In this document: piece after piece, positions 3,822-39,816 of the stretch
How positions within the stretch are numbered: the stretch's first letter is position 1
How the letters are laid out: every line of letters begins with the position of its first letter
Sequence record: PQ423993.1
Reading direction: 5' to 3' (one strand)
DNA length: 45,658 nucleotides
From: Escherichia phage vB_VIPECOMC04
Notes under the pieces: model-generated
Told to the model about the DNA's origin: nothing
Databases searched by the model: none
The model's input: the letters and a program-made list of their open reading frames with translations, nothing else
Made by a program: the position numbers and the translations under genes

Positions 3822-4262
3822 TTATCCTAATAGTTGTTTGGTAATAATCTTGCCGCCGGTGTTGGTGTCGAACTTCGATGCAACGGCTACGCCACCATGC
3901 GCCGAATACCCACATTCCATAGCCGCCAGTGCATAAGGAGAGCCGGACCCAACGGCGGCAAAGCCGTCTGCAATTGGAATAACCGAACTAAGGGCACAAT
4001 CCCATGATTTGTAGAACTCCACCTTACACAACGTTTCTATGTCTTTAACCCACACCAGGGCAGAGAAATCAAAATCATAATGCTTAGGCACTAAAATACC
4101 GTCGTCCTTCACTAAAAGGATTCCAACCCCGGCATCACCAACCACCCCGATAACAACAAATTCGTTCTCATATATCTTTGTGTCTGTGTTGTAATAGTTA
4201 CTTCCACTCACAACACGCGTGTCACAAGCCATTGTCTTTCCGTCGAATGCGATAGTAGTCAT
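3822..4262 (-). CDS. HslV-like / proteasome-beta-like Ntn-hydrolase peptidase
   Basis: N-terminal MTTIA (Thr directly after Met) and GSGSPYALAA match the E. coli HslV MTTIV and GSGGPYAQAA signatures as recalled; about 30 aa shorter than HslV. Confidence 0.6.
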   Translation of the reverse strand: MTTIAFDGKTMACDTRVVSGSNYYNTDTKIYENEFVVIGVVGDAGVGILLVKDDGILVPKHYDFDFSALVWVKDIETLCKVEFYKSWDCALSSVIPIADGFAAVGSGSPYALAAMECGYSAHGGVAVASKFDTNTGGKIITKQLLG

Positions 4263-4597
4263 TTATGTCTCCAGATGTATTGTCGTCTCTGCGGTTTCGT
4301 CGGAATATCATCGTATCCCAGCGATTTCCAGTAATTAAATAACCGATTAGCGATTGCTGCGCGTTCCGGTGTTTTGAACTCACCAAGATTCACGGCCTTC
4401 CCGTTCTGGAATCCGCAGGCGCGGACTGCTTTGCGTCTGGCTTGAATCTCAGGGTACAGCGCGTTACGGCGGCGCTTGTATATTCGGGTGTTCGTTCTCG
4501 GTGACAGCGGCGCAAGGCCGCTTCGTTTCAGGATGTCAGTTGCAAGGCTCATATTCCGAGAATCTCGCGGGCCATTTCTTCTGTAACTTTCGAACAA
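4259..4597 (-). CDS. AP2-like DNA-binding domain protein
   Basis: Segment RRKAVRACGFQNGKAVNLGEFKTPERAAIANRLFNYW resembles the AP2 domain found at the C-terminus of the HNH endonucleases in this genome; no HNH motif present. Confidence 0.4.
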   Translation of the reverse strand: MFESYRRNGPRDSRNMSLATDILKRSGLAPLSPRTNTRIYKRRRNALYPEIQARRKAVRACGFQNGKAVNLGEFKTPERAAIANRLFNYWKSLGYDDIPTKPQRRQYIWRHK

Positions 4598-4743
4598 GGT
4601 TCGTATATTACCTGTTCAGCGAATTCACGTAACTTTGCTTCCAGTTTAAGATAAGCGTCGTATTCTACATAATCGCCGTATGCGTACTCAGCCATCTCAG
4701 GCTCTGGCAGGCCCCATTTTTCCACCTCATACCTCTGTACCAT
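4549..4743 (-). CDS. hypothetical protein (tandem paralog A)
   Basis: Likely ATG at 4741-4743, giving N-terminus MVQRY; paralogous to the adjacent gene. Confidence 0.4.
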   Translation of the reverse strand: MVQRYEVEKWGLPEPEMAEYAYGDYVEYDAYLKLEAKLREFAEQVIYEPCSKVTEEMAREILGI

Positions 4744-4946
4744 CACTCCACCCCTTCCAAATGTGTAACTGACCCACAGTTCGCGCACTCTACGTAATCA
4801 GGGAACTGGTCTTTGTATTTCTGTAACTCGGCTTCAACTTCCAACAGCTTGTGGTCAAGATTCTGGTAGTCCTCAAACTTAACCCACGCCCCGTGACGGT
4901 CCCCGAAATGGTTGTCAGACCCATACTTAGAGTATCTCTGTACCAT
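4743..4946 (-). CDS. hypothetical protein (tandem paralog B)
   Basis: Likely ATG at 4944-4946, also giving MVQRY; shares an acidic helical segment with paralog A. Confidence 0.4.
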   Translation of the reverse strand: MVQRYSKYGSDNHFGDRHGAWVKFEDYQNLDHKLLEVEAELQKYKDQFPDYVECANCGSVTHLEGVE

Positions 4947-4948
4947 AA

Positions 4949-5206
4949 TCACTTCTCCTGTTTACCAAGTCGCTTAGGTGAGCAGATAGCGCGTACCTCT
5001 GAATCGTTGGGCTTGTCGCCCTGGAACAGGAAGTGCGCGTTCTCTGCGGCGCGTGCCGCTGACTGGCACGCCTCCATCGAGTAAAACGTTTCTGATGCCG
5101 CCAGTTGCATCTGGCCTGCGGACAATACCCAGATAAACAAGATGCTGGTCATTTGATTGCCCCGCATTTTAGAGCACTGCTGTAAGTCGCTACACCACGG
5201 AACCAA
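4949..5206 (-). CDS. hypothetical protein with possible signal peptide
   Basis: ORF track; internal MTSILFIWVLSAGQMQLAAS looks like a secretion signal; start codon uncertain. Confidence 0.3.
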   Translation of the reverse strand: MVPWCSDLQQCSKMRGNQMTSILFIWVLSAGQMQLAASETFYSMEACQSAARAAENAHFLFQGDKPNDSEVRAICSPKRLGKQEK

Positions 5207-5221
5207 ACGATAGTCATGTTC

Positions 5222-5629
5222 TCACTCCTGTGTGTCAATCTTGTATTCCACTATGTCTGCGTATGTTCTATCCCAAATCCATGACCGCTTTTCTGCTGCT
5301 ACACTGTGTTTCGGCTCCTCCCCGTTGCGATACCGGATAAATACCATAGTCCCATCCGGCACAGGTTGTCGTGCACCATAATGCGGCCTCCAGGCGTTGT
5401 ACTGAGTATCTTCCTTACGGCAACCAGATTGCTCTGCTGCTATATAAGCGCCTACGTCACCTGTAGCTGTAGCCAACGCCTTACGCAACTCCTTAATATG
5501 TTCTGACGCATCACGTAACTGATTCTTGAGTGACAACACCTCGTGCGCCAGGTCTTCGCACTGGTTGCCATTTACCTGCTGCCGTAACTGGCCAATCAGG
5601 TACTCGAATACCTCGTTTTTGTTACTCAT
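5222..5629 (-). CDS. hypothetical protein
   Basis: ORF track, start moved to ATG 5627-5629 (MSNKNEVFEY); coiled-coil-like N-terminus. Confidence 0.4.
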   Translation of the reverse strand: MSNKNEVFEYLIGQLRQQVNGNQCEDLAHEVLSLKNQLRDASEHIKELRKALATATGDVGAYIAAEQSGCRKEDTQYNAWRPHYGARQPVPDGTMVFIRYRNGEEPKHSVAAEKRSWIWDRTYADIVEYKIDTQE

Positions 5630-17739: not shown

Positions 17740-17914
17740 CCGCAAGCCCGCACGTGACATCGTACCGGGCGACATGATTTTCAACGTTAAGACACGTCGT
17801 CCTGTTGCCGTTGATACGGTGTTCGTCGAGTCGAATGGTAAACTGGTTATCGAAGATGCGACCGGTAACGTTACGGCGTTCGGGCGTAAAGAGCTGGTGC
17901 TGGTGGTGAAATGA
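17723..17914 (+). CDS. hypothetical protein
   Basis: ORF track. Confidence 0.4.
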   Translation: MKYEYDRKPARDIVPGDMIFNVKTRRPVAVDTVFVESNGKLVIEDATGNVTAFGRKELVLVVK

Positions 17915-18855
17915 ACTATTACAATGAGTGGGATAAAGGCGCAGCCGCGTGGCTGCGTGAATTAATAAAACAGGGTCACATACCTTTTGGAGTTGTAGAT
18001 GAAAGAAGCATTACAGAAGTTAAGCCAGAAGACCTCGACGGGTTCACCCAGTGTCATTTTTTCGCTGGTATCGGCGGCTGGCCTCTCGCGCTCAGACTTG
18101 CGGGAGTTTCGGAAAATACGCCTCTCTGGACGGGAAGCCCGCCTTGCCAACCGTTTAGCGCGGCAGGAAAGCAACTCGGACATTTCGACCCGAGACACCT
18201 CGCGCCGGTATTCCTTGACCTCATCAGCGAGTGCCGCCCTCCAGTCCTCTTTGGGGAACAGGTTGCGCCAGCAATTGCAAAATCGTGGATGTGCGATTTA
18301 CAAACTCATCTGGAAGGAGAAGACTACTCCGTCGGGTTTGCCGTACTCCCAGCTTGTAGCGTCGGTGCCCCGCACAAACGCGACAGACTGTTCTTCGGCG
18401 CGTACAACCTGGCTGAGTCCTTGTGCGCAGAACGGGACCGTGAACGGCTACACGGATTGGGAAAAAGTAATCAAACGCAAGGAAGCAGGACGGCAGCAGA
18501 ACCTACGGGACGTGGTTATTCTGGCGGCTTGGTCTACCCCGACAGCGAACGACTTCAAAGGGAGCGGAGAGACAGTGATTCGCAAGGACGGAAAGGACAG
18601 AACATTCGACAGGCTGGACTACTCAACGGAACAGGGACTGAAAATAACACAACCAATTCGGATAACAGTTTCTGGTCCGACGCTGACTGGCTCGGATGCA
18701 GGGACGGAAAGTTCAGGCCAGTTGAATCCGGCACATTCCCGCTGGCTAATGGGATACCCGCCAGAGTGGGACGATTGCGCGGTTACGGCAATGCCATCGT
18801 CCCGCAAGTAGCCGCTGAGTTTATAAAGGCATTTATGGGGGGTATTCATGTCTAA
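17911..18855 (+). CDS. DNA C5-cytosine methyltransferase (frame integrity questionable)
   Basis: FAGIGG (motif I), SPPCQPFSAAGK (IV), GEQV (VI), GAPHKRDRLFF (VIII) and C-terminal GYGNAIVPQVAAEF (X); the motif IX-like segment is in the overlapping +1 frame (see findings). Confidence 0.7.
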   Translation: MNYYNEWDKGAAAWLRELIKQGHIPFGVVDERSITEVKPEDLDGFTQCHFFAGIGGWPLALRLAGVSENTPLWTGSPPCQPFSAAGKQLGHFDPRHLAPVFLDLISECRPPVLFGEQVAPAIAKSWMCDLQTHLEGEDYSVGFAVLPACSVGAPHKRDRLFFGAYNLAESLCAERDRERLHGLGKSNQTQGSRTAAEPTGRGYSGGLVYPDSERLQRERRDSDSQGRKGQNIRQAGLLNGTGTENNTTNSDNSFWSDADWLGCRDGKFRPVESGTFPLANGIPARVGRLRGYGNAIVPQVAAEFIKAFMGGIHV

Positions 18856-29821: not shown

Positions 29822-29929
29822 TCTTTAATCCTTTGGTTAAGAGGTTACAGGTTAATGGTAAATGCGCCAGACGGGAACCACCCGCTTTTCGTGTGCGACA
29901 CTAGGCGCAAAATTATTCTATCACATTAC

Positions 29930-29958
29930 TTGCGCACCCCAACATAATAGGATACTAT
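29930..29958 (+). promoter_or_regulatory. sigma70-like promoter (class B) with operator palindrome
   Basis: TTGCGC-17-TACTAT; palindrome TAATAGG-at-ACTATTC at 29945-29960; drives the plus-strand moron cassette. Confidence 0.55.
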
Positions 29959-29999
29959 TCACTTACACCAACAATGTTAACTCAAACAGGAGCTACACC

Positions 30000-30191
30000 A
30001 TGACAGGTATTACTATGTTCTTCTTAATCATTATCGTTTTAGTTTATTTTATCCCGTTTTTAGTGGCCCATATGCGGGGTCATAAAGCGAAATTAGCGAT
30101 ATTCATGGCCAATCTGTTTCTTGGCTGGGTTCTGCTGCCGTGGGTATTTATTTTAATCTGGGCTTGCAACTCGAATGTCAAAGAGAAGTGA
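30000..30191 (+). CDS. superinfection-immunity-like small membrane protein
   Basis: ATG 30000 with AGGAG upstream; YFIPFLVAHMRGHKAKLAIFMANLFLGWVLLPWVFILIWAC resembles the superinfection immunity family as recalled. Confidence 0.5.
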   Translation: MTGITMFFLIIIVLVYFIPFLVAHMRGHKAKLAIFMANLFLGWVLLPWVFILIWACNSNVKEK

Positions 30192-30230
30192 GCTAGTATA
30201 GGACAAATCCTAAACGCGAGGAAGTAAAGC

Positions 30231-31361
30231 ATGGCCCAGATTAAAATAACCGACGAACAGTTACAGGAAGAATTGAACGCCGGAACAAAGATTATCGACA
30301 TATCCCGTAAATACGGCATCTCAGACCGAGTTATTCGTATCCGTAAAGCGAAGCTGGCGAAGAAAGGCGTAGGTCACGGTCGTGACGTTAGCCATCTTGT
30401 CCCGGACGGCTACAAGATTAAAGGCACGTCGTCACTTGTTGACGAGTTCGGCAACACTAAACTGCAATGGGTTAAGACTGATACCGACGCCGAACGTCAG
30501 GTTGAATTGATGAAAGCCGTAATTGAAGGCATGAAGTCAGAGATTACGCCCGTTGCGCCTGTTAAAGCTGTTCGCGCCAAACGCGACGACAAGCTACTCA
30601 ATCTTTACACGGTATCTGATTTCCATCTCGGTATGCTGGCATGGGCTGATGAGAGCGGAGACGACTGGGACATGAAGATTGCAGAAGACCTGTTCTCCCG
30701 ATGGTTCGACGCGGCGTTCCAGAAAGCACCGGATGCAGGAACAGGAGTTATTAACCTTCTGGGCGACCTCGCTCACTTCGATAGTCTGGATGCGGTTACA
30801 CCTGCAAGTGGTCATGTTCTTGACGCGGACACGCGCTATCAGAAACTTGTACGCTACATGATTCGTATGGTCCGTCGTGTCGTTGATATGGCTCTGGTTA
30901 AACATAAAAATGTTCGCTTGCTTATCGTGCAAGGGAATCACGACGAAAGTGGCATGATTTGGTTGGCTGAGATGTTCAGCACGCTGTACGACAATGAGCC
31001 GCGTGTGTTCGTCGATACGTCGCCGGATGTTTACAAGATGGTGCAACACGGCAAAACGACGCTGTTCTTCCATCACGGACATAAAGCACGCTTCGACGCT
31101 ATCGAACCGATTATGATTGCCAAGTTCCGCAAAGCGTTCGGCGAGAGCGTTTACAGCTACGCCCACGTAGGCCACCTGCACCACCAGAAGATTGTAGAAA
31201 GCCGTAACATGGTTGTTGAGCAACACCGCACCCTGGCGGCTAAAGACGCCTACGCCTCTCGCGGCGGATGGATGTCAGGTCGTAGTGCAAATGTAATTAC
31301 TTATAGCGCCGAATATGGCGAGGTCGCACGTTTAACTATTTCACCGGAGATGCTGGGATGA
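30231..31361 (+). CDS. metallophosphoesterase (calcineurin-like) with N-terminal HTH
   Basis: Ordered motifs VSDFHLG, GDLAHFD, GNHDES, FFHHGH, GHLHH; N-terminal IIDISRKYGISDRVIRIRKAKL looks HTH-like. Confidence 0.7.
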   Translation: MAQIKITDEQLQEELNAGTKIIDISRKYGISDRVIRIRKAKLAKKGVGHGRDVSHLVPDGYKIKGTSSLVDEFGNTKLQWVKTDTDAERQVELMKAVIEGMKSEITPVAPVKAVRAKRDDKLLNLYTVSDFHLGMLAWADESGDDWDMKIAEDLFSRWFDAAFQKAPDAGTGVINLLGDLAHFDSLDAVTPASGHVLDADTRYQKLVRYMIRMVRRVVDMALVKHKNVRLLIVQGNHDESGMIWLAEMFSTLYDNEPRVFVDTSPDVYKMVQHGKTTLFFHHGHKARFDAIEPIMIAKFRKAFGESVYSYAHVGHLHHQKIVESRNMVVEQHRTLAAKDAYASRGGWMSGRSANVITYSAEYGEVARLTISPEMLG

Positions 31362-37822: not shown

Positions 37823-38062
37823 CTATTCCAGAATATTCCTCACGTAATCCTGCAACATGAACACTTTCAGTCTCAGTTGCCGTGCGCATTCGGCGTTCTG
37901 AACGTCGATAGCTAAATCCTCGTCCGCGTCGCTACTTGGCGGTGCCAGTTTGCACGGTGGTTGCATCATCGTCGTATCCGGGGATGGAATTGGCGTTTGC
38001 AACGGCGCGGGACTTGAGCACCCGTAGCACCCTATAACTAAGAGCAATATTGGCAGTCGCAT
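37823..38062 (-). CDS. Rz1-like outer-membrane lipoprotein (o-spanin candidate)
   Basis: Signal peptide with lipobox-like LLVIGC, then proline-rich SPAPLQTPIPSP. Confidence 0.45.
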   Translation of the reverse strand: MRLPILLLVIGCYGCSSPAPLQTPIPSPDTTMMQPPCKLAPPSSDADEDLAIDVQNAECARQLRLKVFMLQDYVRNILE

Positions 38063-38607
38063 TTGAAAAAATCTCCATGTAGCTTCTTGGCAGCTTGCAC
38101 GTAGGCCATGTGTGCGTCGACGGGGGAGTCGAACTGACCGAGATATTTGGTCTTGTTGCGGATTCTTATGTCCGCACGGAATCTGCCGTTCGGGAACCTA
38201 GAAACCCCCTTGAACCCTGTACTATTAGCGGACGTGAGACCAACGTTACGGCTGTTCTCTTGGCTAGTAGCAAGCCTGAGATTTTCTATACGATTGTTGA
38301 GTGGGTTCCCGTCAATGTGGTCTATCTCATATGGTGTCGGAATCGGCCCATTGAAAAGTTCCCATATAAGCCGGTGCGCTTGAAACGCCTTACCCATCCA
38401 TCTAACCTCTATCGTCTGTCGCCGTTTTGCGCCTTTCGGCGTGGTCAGGCACCCTGCCGGGGTTCCTGTTTTATTAGCGAGCTTACTGCTACGCCAGTAA
38501 AGAACCCCATCGTCGTAGTAGAAAGTATCATTCAGTATAGTCATATCCTGGTATCCCGTTTGCATTGCTGATAGCGTCGTATTTGACTCTAACTCTATCA
38601 GCGTCAA
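38038..38607 (-). CDS. HNH homing endonuclease with AP2 domain
   Basis: HRLIWELFNGPIPTPYEIDHIDGNPLNNRIENLR plus AP2-like segment; overlaps both spanin candidates; true start probably internal. Confidence 0.75.
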   Translation of the reverse strand: MTLIELESNTTLSAMQTGYQDMTILNDTFYYDDGVLYWRSSKLANKTGTPAGCLTTPKGAKRRQTIEVRWMGKAFQAHRLIWELFNGPIPTPYEIDHIDGNPLNNRIENLRLATSQENSRNVGLTSANSTGFKGVSRFPNGRFRADIRIRNKTKYLGQFDSPVDAHMAYVQAAKKLHGDFFKCDCQYCS

Positions 38608-38887
38608 ACTTGCAAGATACTTTATTGGGCCTACTTATGTACTTAACGACTTCACGGGTAATCACCTCTGATTTCGTCTTGCCTTCGTTGTCGGCGGCTG
38701 CGGCCTTTGATTCATCCTGCTGCTGCCGTTGTGTTTTCTTCGCTAACTCAGCCTGCGCTTTCTGCTGTTGCTGCGAAACGAGATTCGCCCGGCCTTCATT
38801 CCAGCCGCTGCGGTACTGATAGATGCCGTGTGCGTAAGCCAGGATGATGAAACATGCTCCTGCTACGACAGTTGCTTTAAGATTCAT
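38528..38887 (-). CDS. Rz-like inner-membrane spanin candidate
   Basis: N-terminal TM anchor MNLKATVVAGACFIILAYAHGIY, then a Q/A/K-rich coiled coil. Confidence 0.45.
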   Translation of the reverse strand: MNLKATVVAGACFIILAYAHGIYQYRSGWNEGRANLVSQQQQKAQAELAKKTQRQQQDESKAAAADNEGKTKSEVITREVVKYISRPNKVSCKFDADRVRVKYDAISNANGIPGYDYTE

Positions 38888-39138
38888 GTTTCCCCTTTCT
38901 CGATAAGTAAAGCCCCGCCTTAAAGCGGGGCGCTAGTCCTTATCATTTAAACATAGAAACGGCGTAATCTCAGTAAACCAGTTACTTTTTACACAAGCAA
39001 TAGAGTATGGCCCTTCCGAACGCGTCAGCGTAACTACACTCAGGACTTACGTCCCGCTCCGTTACCTGCCCGCGCCGCGGTCGCTTGTTCATACTTCACA
39101 AGCTCAGGTGGAGCTTAGCACATTTTTAGTGAAAAGTC

Positions 39139-39154
39139 AACTATTCGAATAGTT
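39139..39154. promoter_or_regulatory. perfect 16-bp palindrome built from the operator half-site
   Basis: AACTATTCGAATAGTT; same GAATAGT/ACTATTC half-sites as the promoter operators but in everted order; abuts a TTGACT hexamer on the minus strand. Confidence 0.4.
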
Positions 39155-39206
39155 TATTCCAACGTTTACAATTGAGTGGAATAACTGGAATACGTAAATA
39201 AATAGT

Positions 39207-39235
39207 TTGCGCGCACCAACATAATAGGGTACTAT
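39207..39235 (+). promoter_or_regulatory. sigma70-like promoter (class B) with operator palindrome
   Basis: TTGCGC-17-TACTAT; palindrome TAATAGG-gt-ACTATTC at 39222-39237; 28 nt upstream of the mini-clamp ATG. Confidence 0.55.
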
Positions 39236-39262
39236 TCGGTTAACTTAAACAGGAGATGAGAA

Positions 39263-39784
39263 ATGGTTACTACAGTAATTACTTTCCCTGCGTATGTAGG
39301 GGCGAAAATATGCAGGGCTAAAAATGATGTTCGCTACTATTTGAACGCTTTTTACATAGACCCTGAAGGATTGATAGTGTCTACGGACGGTCATAGATTG
39401 TTCTGCGACAATGTGAAGACCAACGTTGAGAAAGGGACTCTCATAGACATCAAAGGGAGAGAGCCTTCTAAATTTAACTACGCGGAGGTAAACCACGACA
39501 ACGGCAGTGTATCTTTCTATGACGATAATCGTGCGCTTATATGTACACTTCCGGTAGATGTTGTAGAAGGAAACTTTCCTGACTGGAGACGCGTGGTGCA
39601 CATCACACCGGGTGTTGTCGATAGTATAGGGTTCACCCTGCGCTATTTGGCAGACGCGTACAAGATTTCTAAGGCATACAAAAATGAAATTGCTCGTTTC
39701 GATTTCCAGGACCAAACCAGAGGATGTAAAATACTATTTTCAAACACGGCCTTTATGGTGTTAATGCCTGCGCGATTTAAATAA
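39263..39784 (+). CDS. truncated beta sliding clamp homolog (DnaN domain II plus C-terminal segment)
   Basis: DVRYYLN, TDGHRL, GNFPDWRRV, IGFTLRYLAD and VLMPARF align with E. coli DnaN DVRYYLN, TDGHRL, GRFPDYRRV, IGFNVSYVLD and VVMPMRL as recalled; AGGAG RBS; own promoter and terminator. Confidence 0.8.
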   Translation: MVTTVITFPAYVGAKICRAKNDVRYYLNAFYIDPEGLIVSTDGHRLFCDNVKTNVEKGTLIDIKGREPSKFNYAEVNHDNGSVSFYDDNRALICTLPVDVVEGNFPDWRRVVHITPGVVDSIGFTLRYLADAYKISKAYKNEIARFDFQDQTRGCKILFSNTAFMVLMPARFK

Positions 39785-39788
39785 AACT

Positions 39789-39816
39789 AAGGCCCCTTAC
39801 GGGGCCTTTTATCATT
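39789..39816. terminator. bidirectional intrinsic terminator
   Basis: AAGGCCCC-ttac-GGGGCCTT with TTTTATCATT downstream and an A-run upstream. Confidence 0.65.

Follow-up and report, generated by a model that had tools for sequence, protein, structure and literature searches.

In bacteria, DNA replication, its control and DNA repair converge on one central docking hub, the β sliding clamp, which is also an antibiotic target. In Escherichia coli β (DnaN; PDB 1MMI, 2POL), a protein of 366 residues, client proteins dock through a clamp-binding motif (CBM) into a hydrophobic pocket with two subsites, I and II. The published pocket comprises 18 residues: R152, L155, T172, G174, H175, R176, L177, P242, R246, V247, N320, Y323, V344, V360, M362, P363, M364 and R365 (PMC11139829). 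It is made only of residues within 152-177, 242-247, 320-323, 344 and 360-365, and the hydrophobic dimer interface involves I78 and F106 in domain I and I272 and L273 in the first half of domain III (PMC11139829). Here we describe a gene of Escherichia phage vB_VIPECOMC04 (PQ423993.1), an E. coli siphophage whose 45,658-nucleotide Kagunavirus (Guernseyvirinae) genome was analysed as a whole and is called the window below. The gene, at 39263..39784 on the + strand, encodes a product of 173 residues, the mini-clamp. As judged from its sequence, the mini-clamp is a true DnaN homologue and a pocket-only derivative of the gammaproteobacterial β clamp. It differs from DnaN in having neither domain I nor the first half of domain III, in missing the interface residues and one channel helix, and in being encoded in a phage accessory cassette.

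Several described proteins resemble the mini-clamp in part. The host product β* is said, in 1996 papers from the Livneh laboratory, to be a shorter, UV-inducible form of E. coli β that arises from an internal start in dnaN and consists of domains II and III. Both proteins would be N-terminally truncated clamps with the pocket region, but the host product reportedly has two complete domains, forms a ring-like oligomer and derives from dnaN itself, whereas the mini-clamp has one and a half domains and is encoded by an independent, diverged gene. Full-length phage DnaN homologues (phrog_947, 'DNA polymerase processivity factor'; 345-400 residues in BFVD) belong to the same superfamily and are also phage-borne, and the mini-clamp matches phrog_947 over the central domain of the latter (E=8e-9). 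These homologues have three domains and presumably form rings, whereas the mini-clamp family (PHROG 3007 and relatives, 169-252 residues) is a separate stand-alone short form. The herpesvirus processivity subunits (herpes simplex virus UL42, cytomegalovirus UL44 and Kaposi's sarcoma-associated herpesvirus PF-8) consist of two complete domains, bind DNA by a basic face and are essential partners of their cognate polymerase; unlike them, the mini-clamp has no identified cognate polymerase partner. Twort Gp168 (PMC8565349) and the CBM-bearing MuC of phage Mu (PMC12867686) are phage proteins of unrelated fold that act on the host β clamp. They bind the clamp, by channel plugging or CBM docking, whereas the mini-clamp would conversely imitate the docking site; like them, it would be a phage manipulation of the β interaction hub.

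Homology with DnaN is seen in single-sequence, profile and fold comparisons. The mini-clamp alone finds a sliding clamp in the PDB at E=4e-5, and the profile of its family finds E. coli β at E=2.3e-27, with an overall identity of about 27%. The first-pass annotation, made from the letters of the sequence, had aligned five blocks of the protein with DnaN, and all five fall into register: DVRYYLN with β 150-156, TDGHRL with 172-177, FPDWRRV with 241-247, IGFTLRYLAD with 317-326 and VLMPARF with 360-366. General family models match weakly. PF02767, the β-clamp central domain, scores 17.1 bits (E=0.0068) under a gathering score of 27, and TIGR00663 scores 19.5 bits (E=3.9e-4) against a cut-off of 137.65. 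PF02767 is the sole Pfam match, and the three-domain DnaN architecture (about 366 residues; PF00712, PF02767 and PF02768) is not present. The AlphaFold model (pLDDT 95.7, pTM 0.91) has the beta-alpha-beta-beta-beta repeats of the DnaN/PCNA-type fold, and its strong Foldseek matches are all sliding clamps. These alignments span about 257 columns and run through domain II, a gap of about 60 residues and then a C-terminal half-domain. The PDB holds no solved short-clamp structure, every profile match there being a chain of at least 366 residues.

The protein can be divided into four segments. Residues 1-50 (39263..39412) are the first half of domain II and align with β residues from about 138 to 180; they are modelled as a strand, a helix (8-17) and three strands, and include the RYYLN loop and the TDGHRL strand. 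Residues 51-101 (39413..39565) are the second half of domain II, modelled as strands 59-63, 73-77, 82-86 and 92-101 with no helix between them. The channel-lining helix has been deleted here; in longer homologues an insert remains at the corresponding place (alignment columns 99-115). A connector, (D/E)G-x-FPDWRRV, occupies residues 102-117 (39566..39613) and aligns with β 238-253; across the family P106, W108 and R109 are invariant and R110 and V111 are conserved at 90% or more. Residues 118-173 and the stop codon (39614..39784) are the second half of domain III, with the IGF-x-x-x-Y helix (126-138), three strands and the C-terminal MPxR, and family profile positions 125-181 align with β 314-366, finishing exactly at the β C-terminus. 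As the first-pass annotation had stated, domain I and half of domain III are missing: no segment aligns with β 1-137, the motifs of the C-terminal module correspond to β 314-366, and the profile alignment has no counterpart of β 254-313. The head-to-tail dimer interface is lost with them, and I78, F106, I272 and L273 have no equivalents. Pocket residue positions and rigid-body superposition suggest that the retained pieces would form one contiguous arc of the ring.

Because the β pocket is built only from the residue stretches listed above, the pieces retained in the mini-clamp are exactly the pocket-forming ones. The mini-clamp has the same residue as β at 15 of the 18 published pocket positions, against about 27% identity overall (Fisher p=2e-7), which bears out the earlier claim that the cleft residues are kept. 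The 15 are R24, L27, T41, G43, H44, R45 and L46 in the first half of domain II; P106, R110 and V111 in the connector; and Y128, V166, M168, P169 and R171 in the C-terminal module. The remaining positions, N320, V344 and M364 of β, are T, T and A in the mini-clamp, and V344 is unconserved among clamps too. The hydrophobic CBM-binding pocket, with subsites I and II, is therefore present at the level of residue identity. Thirteen of the 18 pocket positions rank within the top 25 of the 173 family columns by conservation (hypergeometric p=2.5e-9), and the other columns in this set are mostly direct neighbours in the pocket motifs (for example D42, D107, W108, R109, Y25, Y26 and N28). Since the most conserved columns are pocket residues and their neighbours, selection in the mini-clamp family is focused on the cleft.

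The gene is housed in a mobile cassette at 39195..39811 (+ strand) that consists of a putative promoter, a ribosome-binding site (RBS), the mini-clamp open reading frame (ORF) and a terminator. The ORF starts with ATG, and the RBS, AGGAG at 39251..39255 (+ strand), lies 8 nt upstream; phage Schulenburg has an annotated RBS at the equivalent position. Downstream, at 39789..39808, is a bidirectional intrinsic terminator, AAGGCCCCTTACGGGGCCTT, a hairpin and T-run detected on both strands of the window and annotated on both strands in Schulenburg. The neighbouring genes are all on the - strand, with a Hoc-like decoration protein, a MuF-like protein and the portal on one side and the i-spanin, an HNH endonuclease and the scaffold on the other. 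The mini-clamp is antisense to this morphogenesis block, and the first-pass annotation was right about both its orientation and its terminator. Around the cassette, identity is 98.6% with phage vB_VIPECOTPH05A and 96% with Schulenburg. The mini-clamp dN/dS (ratio of nonsynonymous to synonymous substitution rates) against Schulenburg is 0.24, a value that comes from 15 substitutions only and is weak on its own. For non-coding RNA, Rfam gave a single sub-threshold match at or near the locus, Atu_C8 over the terminator (20 bits against a cut-off of 50). The GC content of the cassette is 42.5%, compared with 50.7% for the window, and falls at the 2.5th percentile of segments of the same size.

Comparison with related phages shows how this cassette behaves. 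In K1G, the type species, and in many other Guernseyvirinae, the sequence equivalent to about 39195-39790 is absent between conserved flanks, and the site is empty. A few phages, fBC-Eco01 among them, carry the cassette (window 39196-39810, 97% identity) at a different site, between the portal and MuF-like genes. The Salmonella phage S100 (Jerseyvirus) and its relatives have the same promoter, RBS, first codons and terminator around an N6_N4 DNA methyltransferase ORF. The cargo has been exchanged at the ORF boundaries, the methyltransferase replacing the mini-clamp, and the same terminator hairpin closes it (S100 1700-2660 and K1G 780-960 were compared with window 39195-39811). Inserts of further sizes occupy the site in K1H, ZCEC5, LM02P1, PK1 and HSE2. 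Because it is absent, relocated or swapped among relatives and has an atypical GC content, the mini-clamp gene is accessory and horizontally mobile. The locus is a genuine moron, as the first-pass annotation had proposed on slimmer grounds, and its promoter, RBS and terminator are a socket reused for different cargo ORFs. The moron concept of Hendrix and Juhala describes an autonomous promoter-gene-terminator unit in lambdoid and other tailed phages. This locus resembles known morons in being a probably autonomous unit, antisense in a late operon, with atypical GC and presence/absence polymorphism; it differs from them in reusing one expression socket for different cargo and in occupying two different sites within one genus. 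A search for the same fragment in related phages found it at this locus in at least 15 independent phage genomes. A mis-assembled piece of host dnaN was rejected as the source, given these genomes and the identity of about 27% to E. coli β.

A further insertion lies close to the cassette. Relative to Schulenburg, an HNH/AP2-type endonuclease gene (38038-38607, - strand), an insertion of about 600 bp, interrupts the overlap between i-spanin and o-spanin, with flanking parts at 37823-38078 and 38528-38887. The 3' end of the i-spanin gene just upstream has been recoded (...NANGIPGYDYTE), and the original end (...NANSIPGYDDDATTVQ) is left downstream as a remnant. This arrangement looks like a homing-endonuclease footprint.

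The cassette promoter reads as a -35-like hexamer, TTGCGC at 39207..39212 (+ strand; three of six consensus positions), and a -10-like hexamer, TACTAT at 39230..39235 (+ strand), 17 nt further on. The first-pass annotation had called this the gene's own promoter, a claim that stands in part. The combined element (39207-39235) agrees with the consensus at 7 of 12 positions and is not listed by a consensus promoter scan, but a -35 hexamer TTGCGC (or TTGCAC/TTGCAT) with the same spacing and palindrome recurs at 29930 (+), 7221 (-) and 6226 (-), and the promoter travels with the cassette, being kept in Schulenburg and S100 and partly in fBC-Eco01. A palindromic operator, AATAGGGTACTATT at 39223..39236, overlaps the -10 hexamer and has the core AATAG-N4-CTATT. 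This is the cassette's own operator. The palindrome at 39139..39154 (AACTATTCGAATAGTT), where the interval given in the earlier claim begins, belongs instead to the conserved flank outside the cassette; it is present in S100 and in K1G, which has no mini-clamp, and adjoins a leftward promoter-like site, TTGACT-17-TAAGCT. That site would serve a conserved ORF of 36 residues (38982..39092, - strand) with its own terminator (38931..38912), and the whole unit (38912-39154, - strand) is found in K1G, S100 and Schulenburg (Schulenberg_008).

The cassette operator is one of many in the window. The search pattern AATAGTNNNNTATT gave 22 strand-matches at 11 sites, compared with 2.3 expected, and none of 100 shuffles reached this number. 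The 14-nt sites are at 2432, 6197, 6355, 7192, 10604, 10648, 13111, 17670, 29946, 39132 and 39223, and they precede replication, recombination and small early genes. Operator-bearing promoter-like sites fall into two subclasses, TTGCGC/TTGCAC-N17-TACTAT and TTGAC(A/G)-N17 (four sites, three of them with TATAGT at -10), the second of which lies upstream of the DUF2800-nuclease, SSB/Pol A and SNF2-helicase operons. The motif matches the 'phage promoter' consensus that PHIRE identified in fBC-Eco01 (PMC9825357). No phage RNA polymerase is annotated in fBC-Eco01, and we therefore read these sites as host-type promoters with one common operator. Because this promoter class is common to the replication operons, the mini-clamp would belong to the non-structural (early/middle) regulon. 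The sole RNA sequencing paper on a Kagunavirus (K1B4) does not mention the mini-clamp gene. A second + strand island, at 29862-31361 in the late-gene block, has a promoter near-identical to that of the mini-clamp, TTGCGC-acccca-acat-AATAGGATACTATT.

The mini-clamp belongs to a large phage family. Its residues 13-172 match positions 12-186 of the 190 in the PHROG 3007 profile (E=9.3e-36), which makes it a full member. Searching with tblastn returned 222 phage records, and a profile search returned more than 2,580 protein clusters at E<=1e-5, the best 120 of which are all stand-alone proteins of 169-252 residues with no fusions. The carriers are phages of Escherichia, Salmonella, Klebsiella, Serratia, Proteus, Vibrio, Shewanella, Burkholderia and others, and BFVD contains similar short clamps from phages of Serratia, Pantoea, Burkholderia, Xanthomonas, Bacillus, Rhodococcus and Gordonia. 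The sole hint of a fusion context for the fold is BFVD entry A0A6J7W9M3_1 (rank 29), a 'large polyvalent protein-associated domain' protein of 1,394 residues from an uncultured phage with a clamp-like region (Foldseek E=1.8e-5, TMq 0.54). Longer members of the family (200-234 residues) extend past MPxR in a C-terminal tail that is absent from the mini-clamp, with a recurring [VL]P[AGT]W[VA] and often ending ...AA (alignment columns 255-290). Such a tail might mark the protein for degradation, or be a peptide that binds a partner or the protein itself.

The gene is found in varied genomic settings. In the Shigella phage EP23 (Dhillonvirus; 4007-5365) it is antisense in the head block, adjacent to and co-oriented with an Nmad5-domain gene (PF18757, E=2e-58). 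A missense mutation in the Nmad5 gene of these phages leads to escape from Tmn defence, and attempts to clone the gene failed, with apparent toxicity (PMC11846954). Shewanella phage 1/41 has the gene antisense between sheath and head genes, and Klebsiella and Salmonella phages have it in an operon with a ParB-like gene. The gene order is ParB-like, mini-clamp and helicase, with a primase close by, in Serratia phage Eta, and cII, mini-clamp, O-like and P-like in the lambdoid Hafnia phage yong1. In Skarpretter it lies among Dam/Dcm methylases, a dUTPase and a primase.

Our preferred reading, held tentatively and at somewhat less than even confidence, is that the mini-clamp is a decoy. It would be made early to mid infection from the promoter class common to the replication operons and would act as a soluble, non-ring module. 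Its pocket would bind the CBM peptides of host proteins that normally dock on β, and by capturing them it would compete with the host clamp as a decoy or sponge. The candidates are the clamp-loader subunit delta, Pol III, Hda, MutS/MutL, translesion polymerases and RecB. Three elements of this reading are inferred: a functional cleft, a host CBM as its ligand, and competition, not recruitment, as the result. Phages with unrelated replication modules (Pol A phages, a lambdoid phage with O/P-type replication genes, and phages with the gene in ParB-like/helicase/primase contexts) retain the same canonical pocket, and because the host is all that these carriers have in common, conservation of the pocket argues for a host rather than a phage ligand. 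A CBM-bearing phage partner was sought and none was identified. Among all ORFs of at least 50 residues, the only terminal CBM-like motif is the N-terminal 'YQKLMTSF' of the SNF2 helicase, which is the helicase Q-motif region; ten replication-module proteins of the phage have no terminal CBM and one weak internal match, QAGLL in the product of 17911..18855.

The decoy reading also fits because the gene is dispensable, is exchangeable with anti-restriction-type cargo and has no second conserved surface. Monomeric β binds delta about 50-fold more tightly than the ring does (PMC11139829), and RecB reportedly degrades DNA with full activity only if it has a CBM (bioRxiv 10.1101/2025.08.20.671105). 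These reports suggest delta and RecB as concrete candidate targets.

Several points weigh against the decoy reading. For no family member did the literature yield data on binding, toxicity or phenotype, and the three-dimensional geometry of the cleft is deduced from rigid-body superposition scores and residue identity. Some carriers, such as yong1 and the Klebsiella and Salmonella phages, apparently have no polymerase of their own and presumably use host Pol III and β; a general CBM sponge would harm their replication, and a selective target or an adaptor would therefore be needed. A positive role in replication would account just as well for the gene being co-regulated and co-located with replication genes. 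The half-domain exposes an edge, which suggests another partner or self-association, and the predicted isoelectric point of 8.3 is compatible with direct DNA binding.

The alternative that survives best, though we consider it unlikely, is a recruitment adaptor or tether. Here the pocket would take one CBM-bearing host protein of replication or repair, which lineage-specific surfaces of the mini-clamp would keep at the replisome or origin of the phage. The mini-clamp would then aid phage DNA replication in the manner of the monomeric clamp-fold processivity subunits of herpesviruses. Such a role would agree with the position of the gene beside replication genes in unrelated phages (yong1, Eta, the Klebsiella and Salmonella ParB-like operons, and Skarpretter). 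Against it, no second surface is conserved family-wide, nearly all of the top columns being pocket motifs. The gene is also dispensable and exchangeable within Guernseyvirinae, the termini of the phage replication proteins bear no canonical CBM, and fusions to replication domains are missing from the best 120 family members. The first-pass annotation had named both a decoy, for host or phage clamp-binding proteins, and an adaptor for the phage replisome, and both are candidate roles.

It is less probable still that the conserved surface serves another use. It might bind DNA, single-stranded or primed, or a different epitope might serve to sense or block a defence protein. The β pocket region contacts DNA in the clamp-DNA crystal structure, and the mini-clamp is basic, as its isoelectric point shows. 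A defence-related use would suit the alternative cargo, since a DNA methyltransferase is a typical anti-restriction function, and the Dhillonvirus neighbour Nmad5, mutations in which allow escape from Tmn (PMC11846954). Against both versions, the conserved residues match the CBM-contacting residues of solved complexes almost one for one. No family in the PADLOC defence catalogue matches the mini-clamp at E<=1, and no link to defence was found in the literature.

We regard it as very unlikely that the mini-clamp is a real sliding clamp, as GenBank annotations have it, with protomers of one and a half domains that self-assemble by half-domain complementation, for example as a dimer of dimers with 12 half-domain units, into a processivity factor for the phage polymerase. 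Four protomers of three half-domain units each would supply the 12 that make up a clamp ring, and these half-domains repeat one another with pseudo-symmetry. In HMMER alignments the C-terminal module can fall on either half of domain III, and the truncated half-domain would have to expose an edge that the partner half normally covers. However, the canonical dimer-interface segments are missing, and one of the three channel helices expected per protomer has been deleted in the mini-clamp subfamily. The DNA polymerase of the phage is of family A, and the genome further encodes a primase-helicase-like protein (AAA_25), a helicase of the SNF2 type, an SSB of the Enc34 type and a DUF2800 nuclease. 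Kagunavirus genomes, that of the closely related fBC-Eco01 among them, have no annotated clamp loader, and many close relatives without the gene replicate normally. With the dimer interface and channel helix lost, a family-A polymerase and no annotated clamp loader, a canonical closed ring, loaded on DNA, is unlikely.

A RusA-like Holliday junction resolvase, the label that PHROG 3007 has in several GenBank and RefSeq records, has that label alone in its favour and can be discounted almost entirely, as Pfam at E<=10 gives only the β-clamp central domain and no RusA structure is among the fold matches.

Existing annotation of the family is mixed. Members are labelled 'DNA polymerase III sliding clamp', 'beta clamp domain-containing protein' or 'RusA-like Holliday junction resolvase', and the last of these, attached to PHROG 3007 and phrog_12598, has spread into PQ429079, NC_016566, NC_048112, NC_025458 and other records. 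The gene itself is no discovery, since clamp similarity is already noted in many GenBank annotations. This qualifies the statement in the first-pass annotation that no phage protein of this type had been characterised: it agrees with the literature, where no functional study of a truncated phage clamp was found, but the similarity had been recorded under PHROG 3007. Three features are not described in the searchable literature: an architecture reduced to the pocket, conservation that centres on the cleft throughout the family, and a cassette that swaps its cargo. The mini-clamp departs from the architecture and interface that define the sliding-clamp family, and the label of a functional 'DNA polymerase III sliding clamp' is therefore inappropriate for it. 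Correct family labels matter for phage genome annotation.

It is possible, though we put it forward with slightly more reserve than the decoy reading itself, that mini-clamps are widespread, unrecognised phage effectors that copy nothing of β but its docking site, and in this way block or redirect the hub during infection. They would then be counter-host or counter-defence cargo, interchangeable with a methyltransferase. If so, trapping delta or Pol III could stop host replication, and stripping RecB or MutL/MutS from the clamp could protect phage DNA. A pocket-only protein of about 20 kDa, probably monomeric, would be evidence for a new mode of phage interference with the host, in which the hub is mimicked and not bound. 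The mini-clamp may also be of use as a compact reagent for mapping functional clamp-binding motifs and as a minimal scaffold on which to screen pocket-directed inhibitors. In the Guernseyvirinae, the locus illustrates clearly how related phages can exchange the cargo of a promoter/terminator socket and use the socket again.

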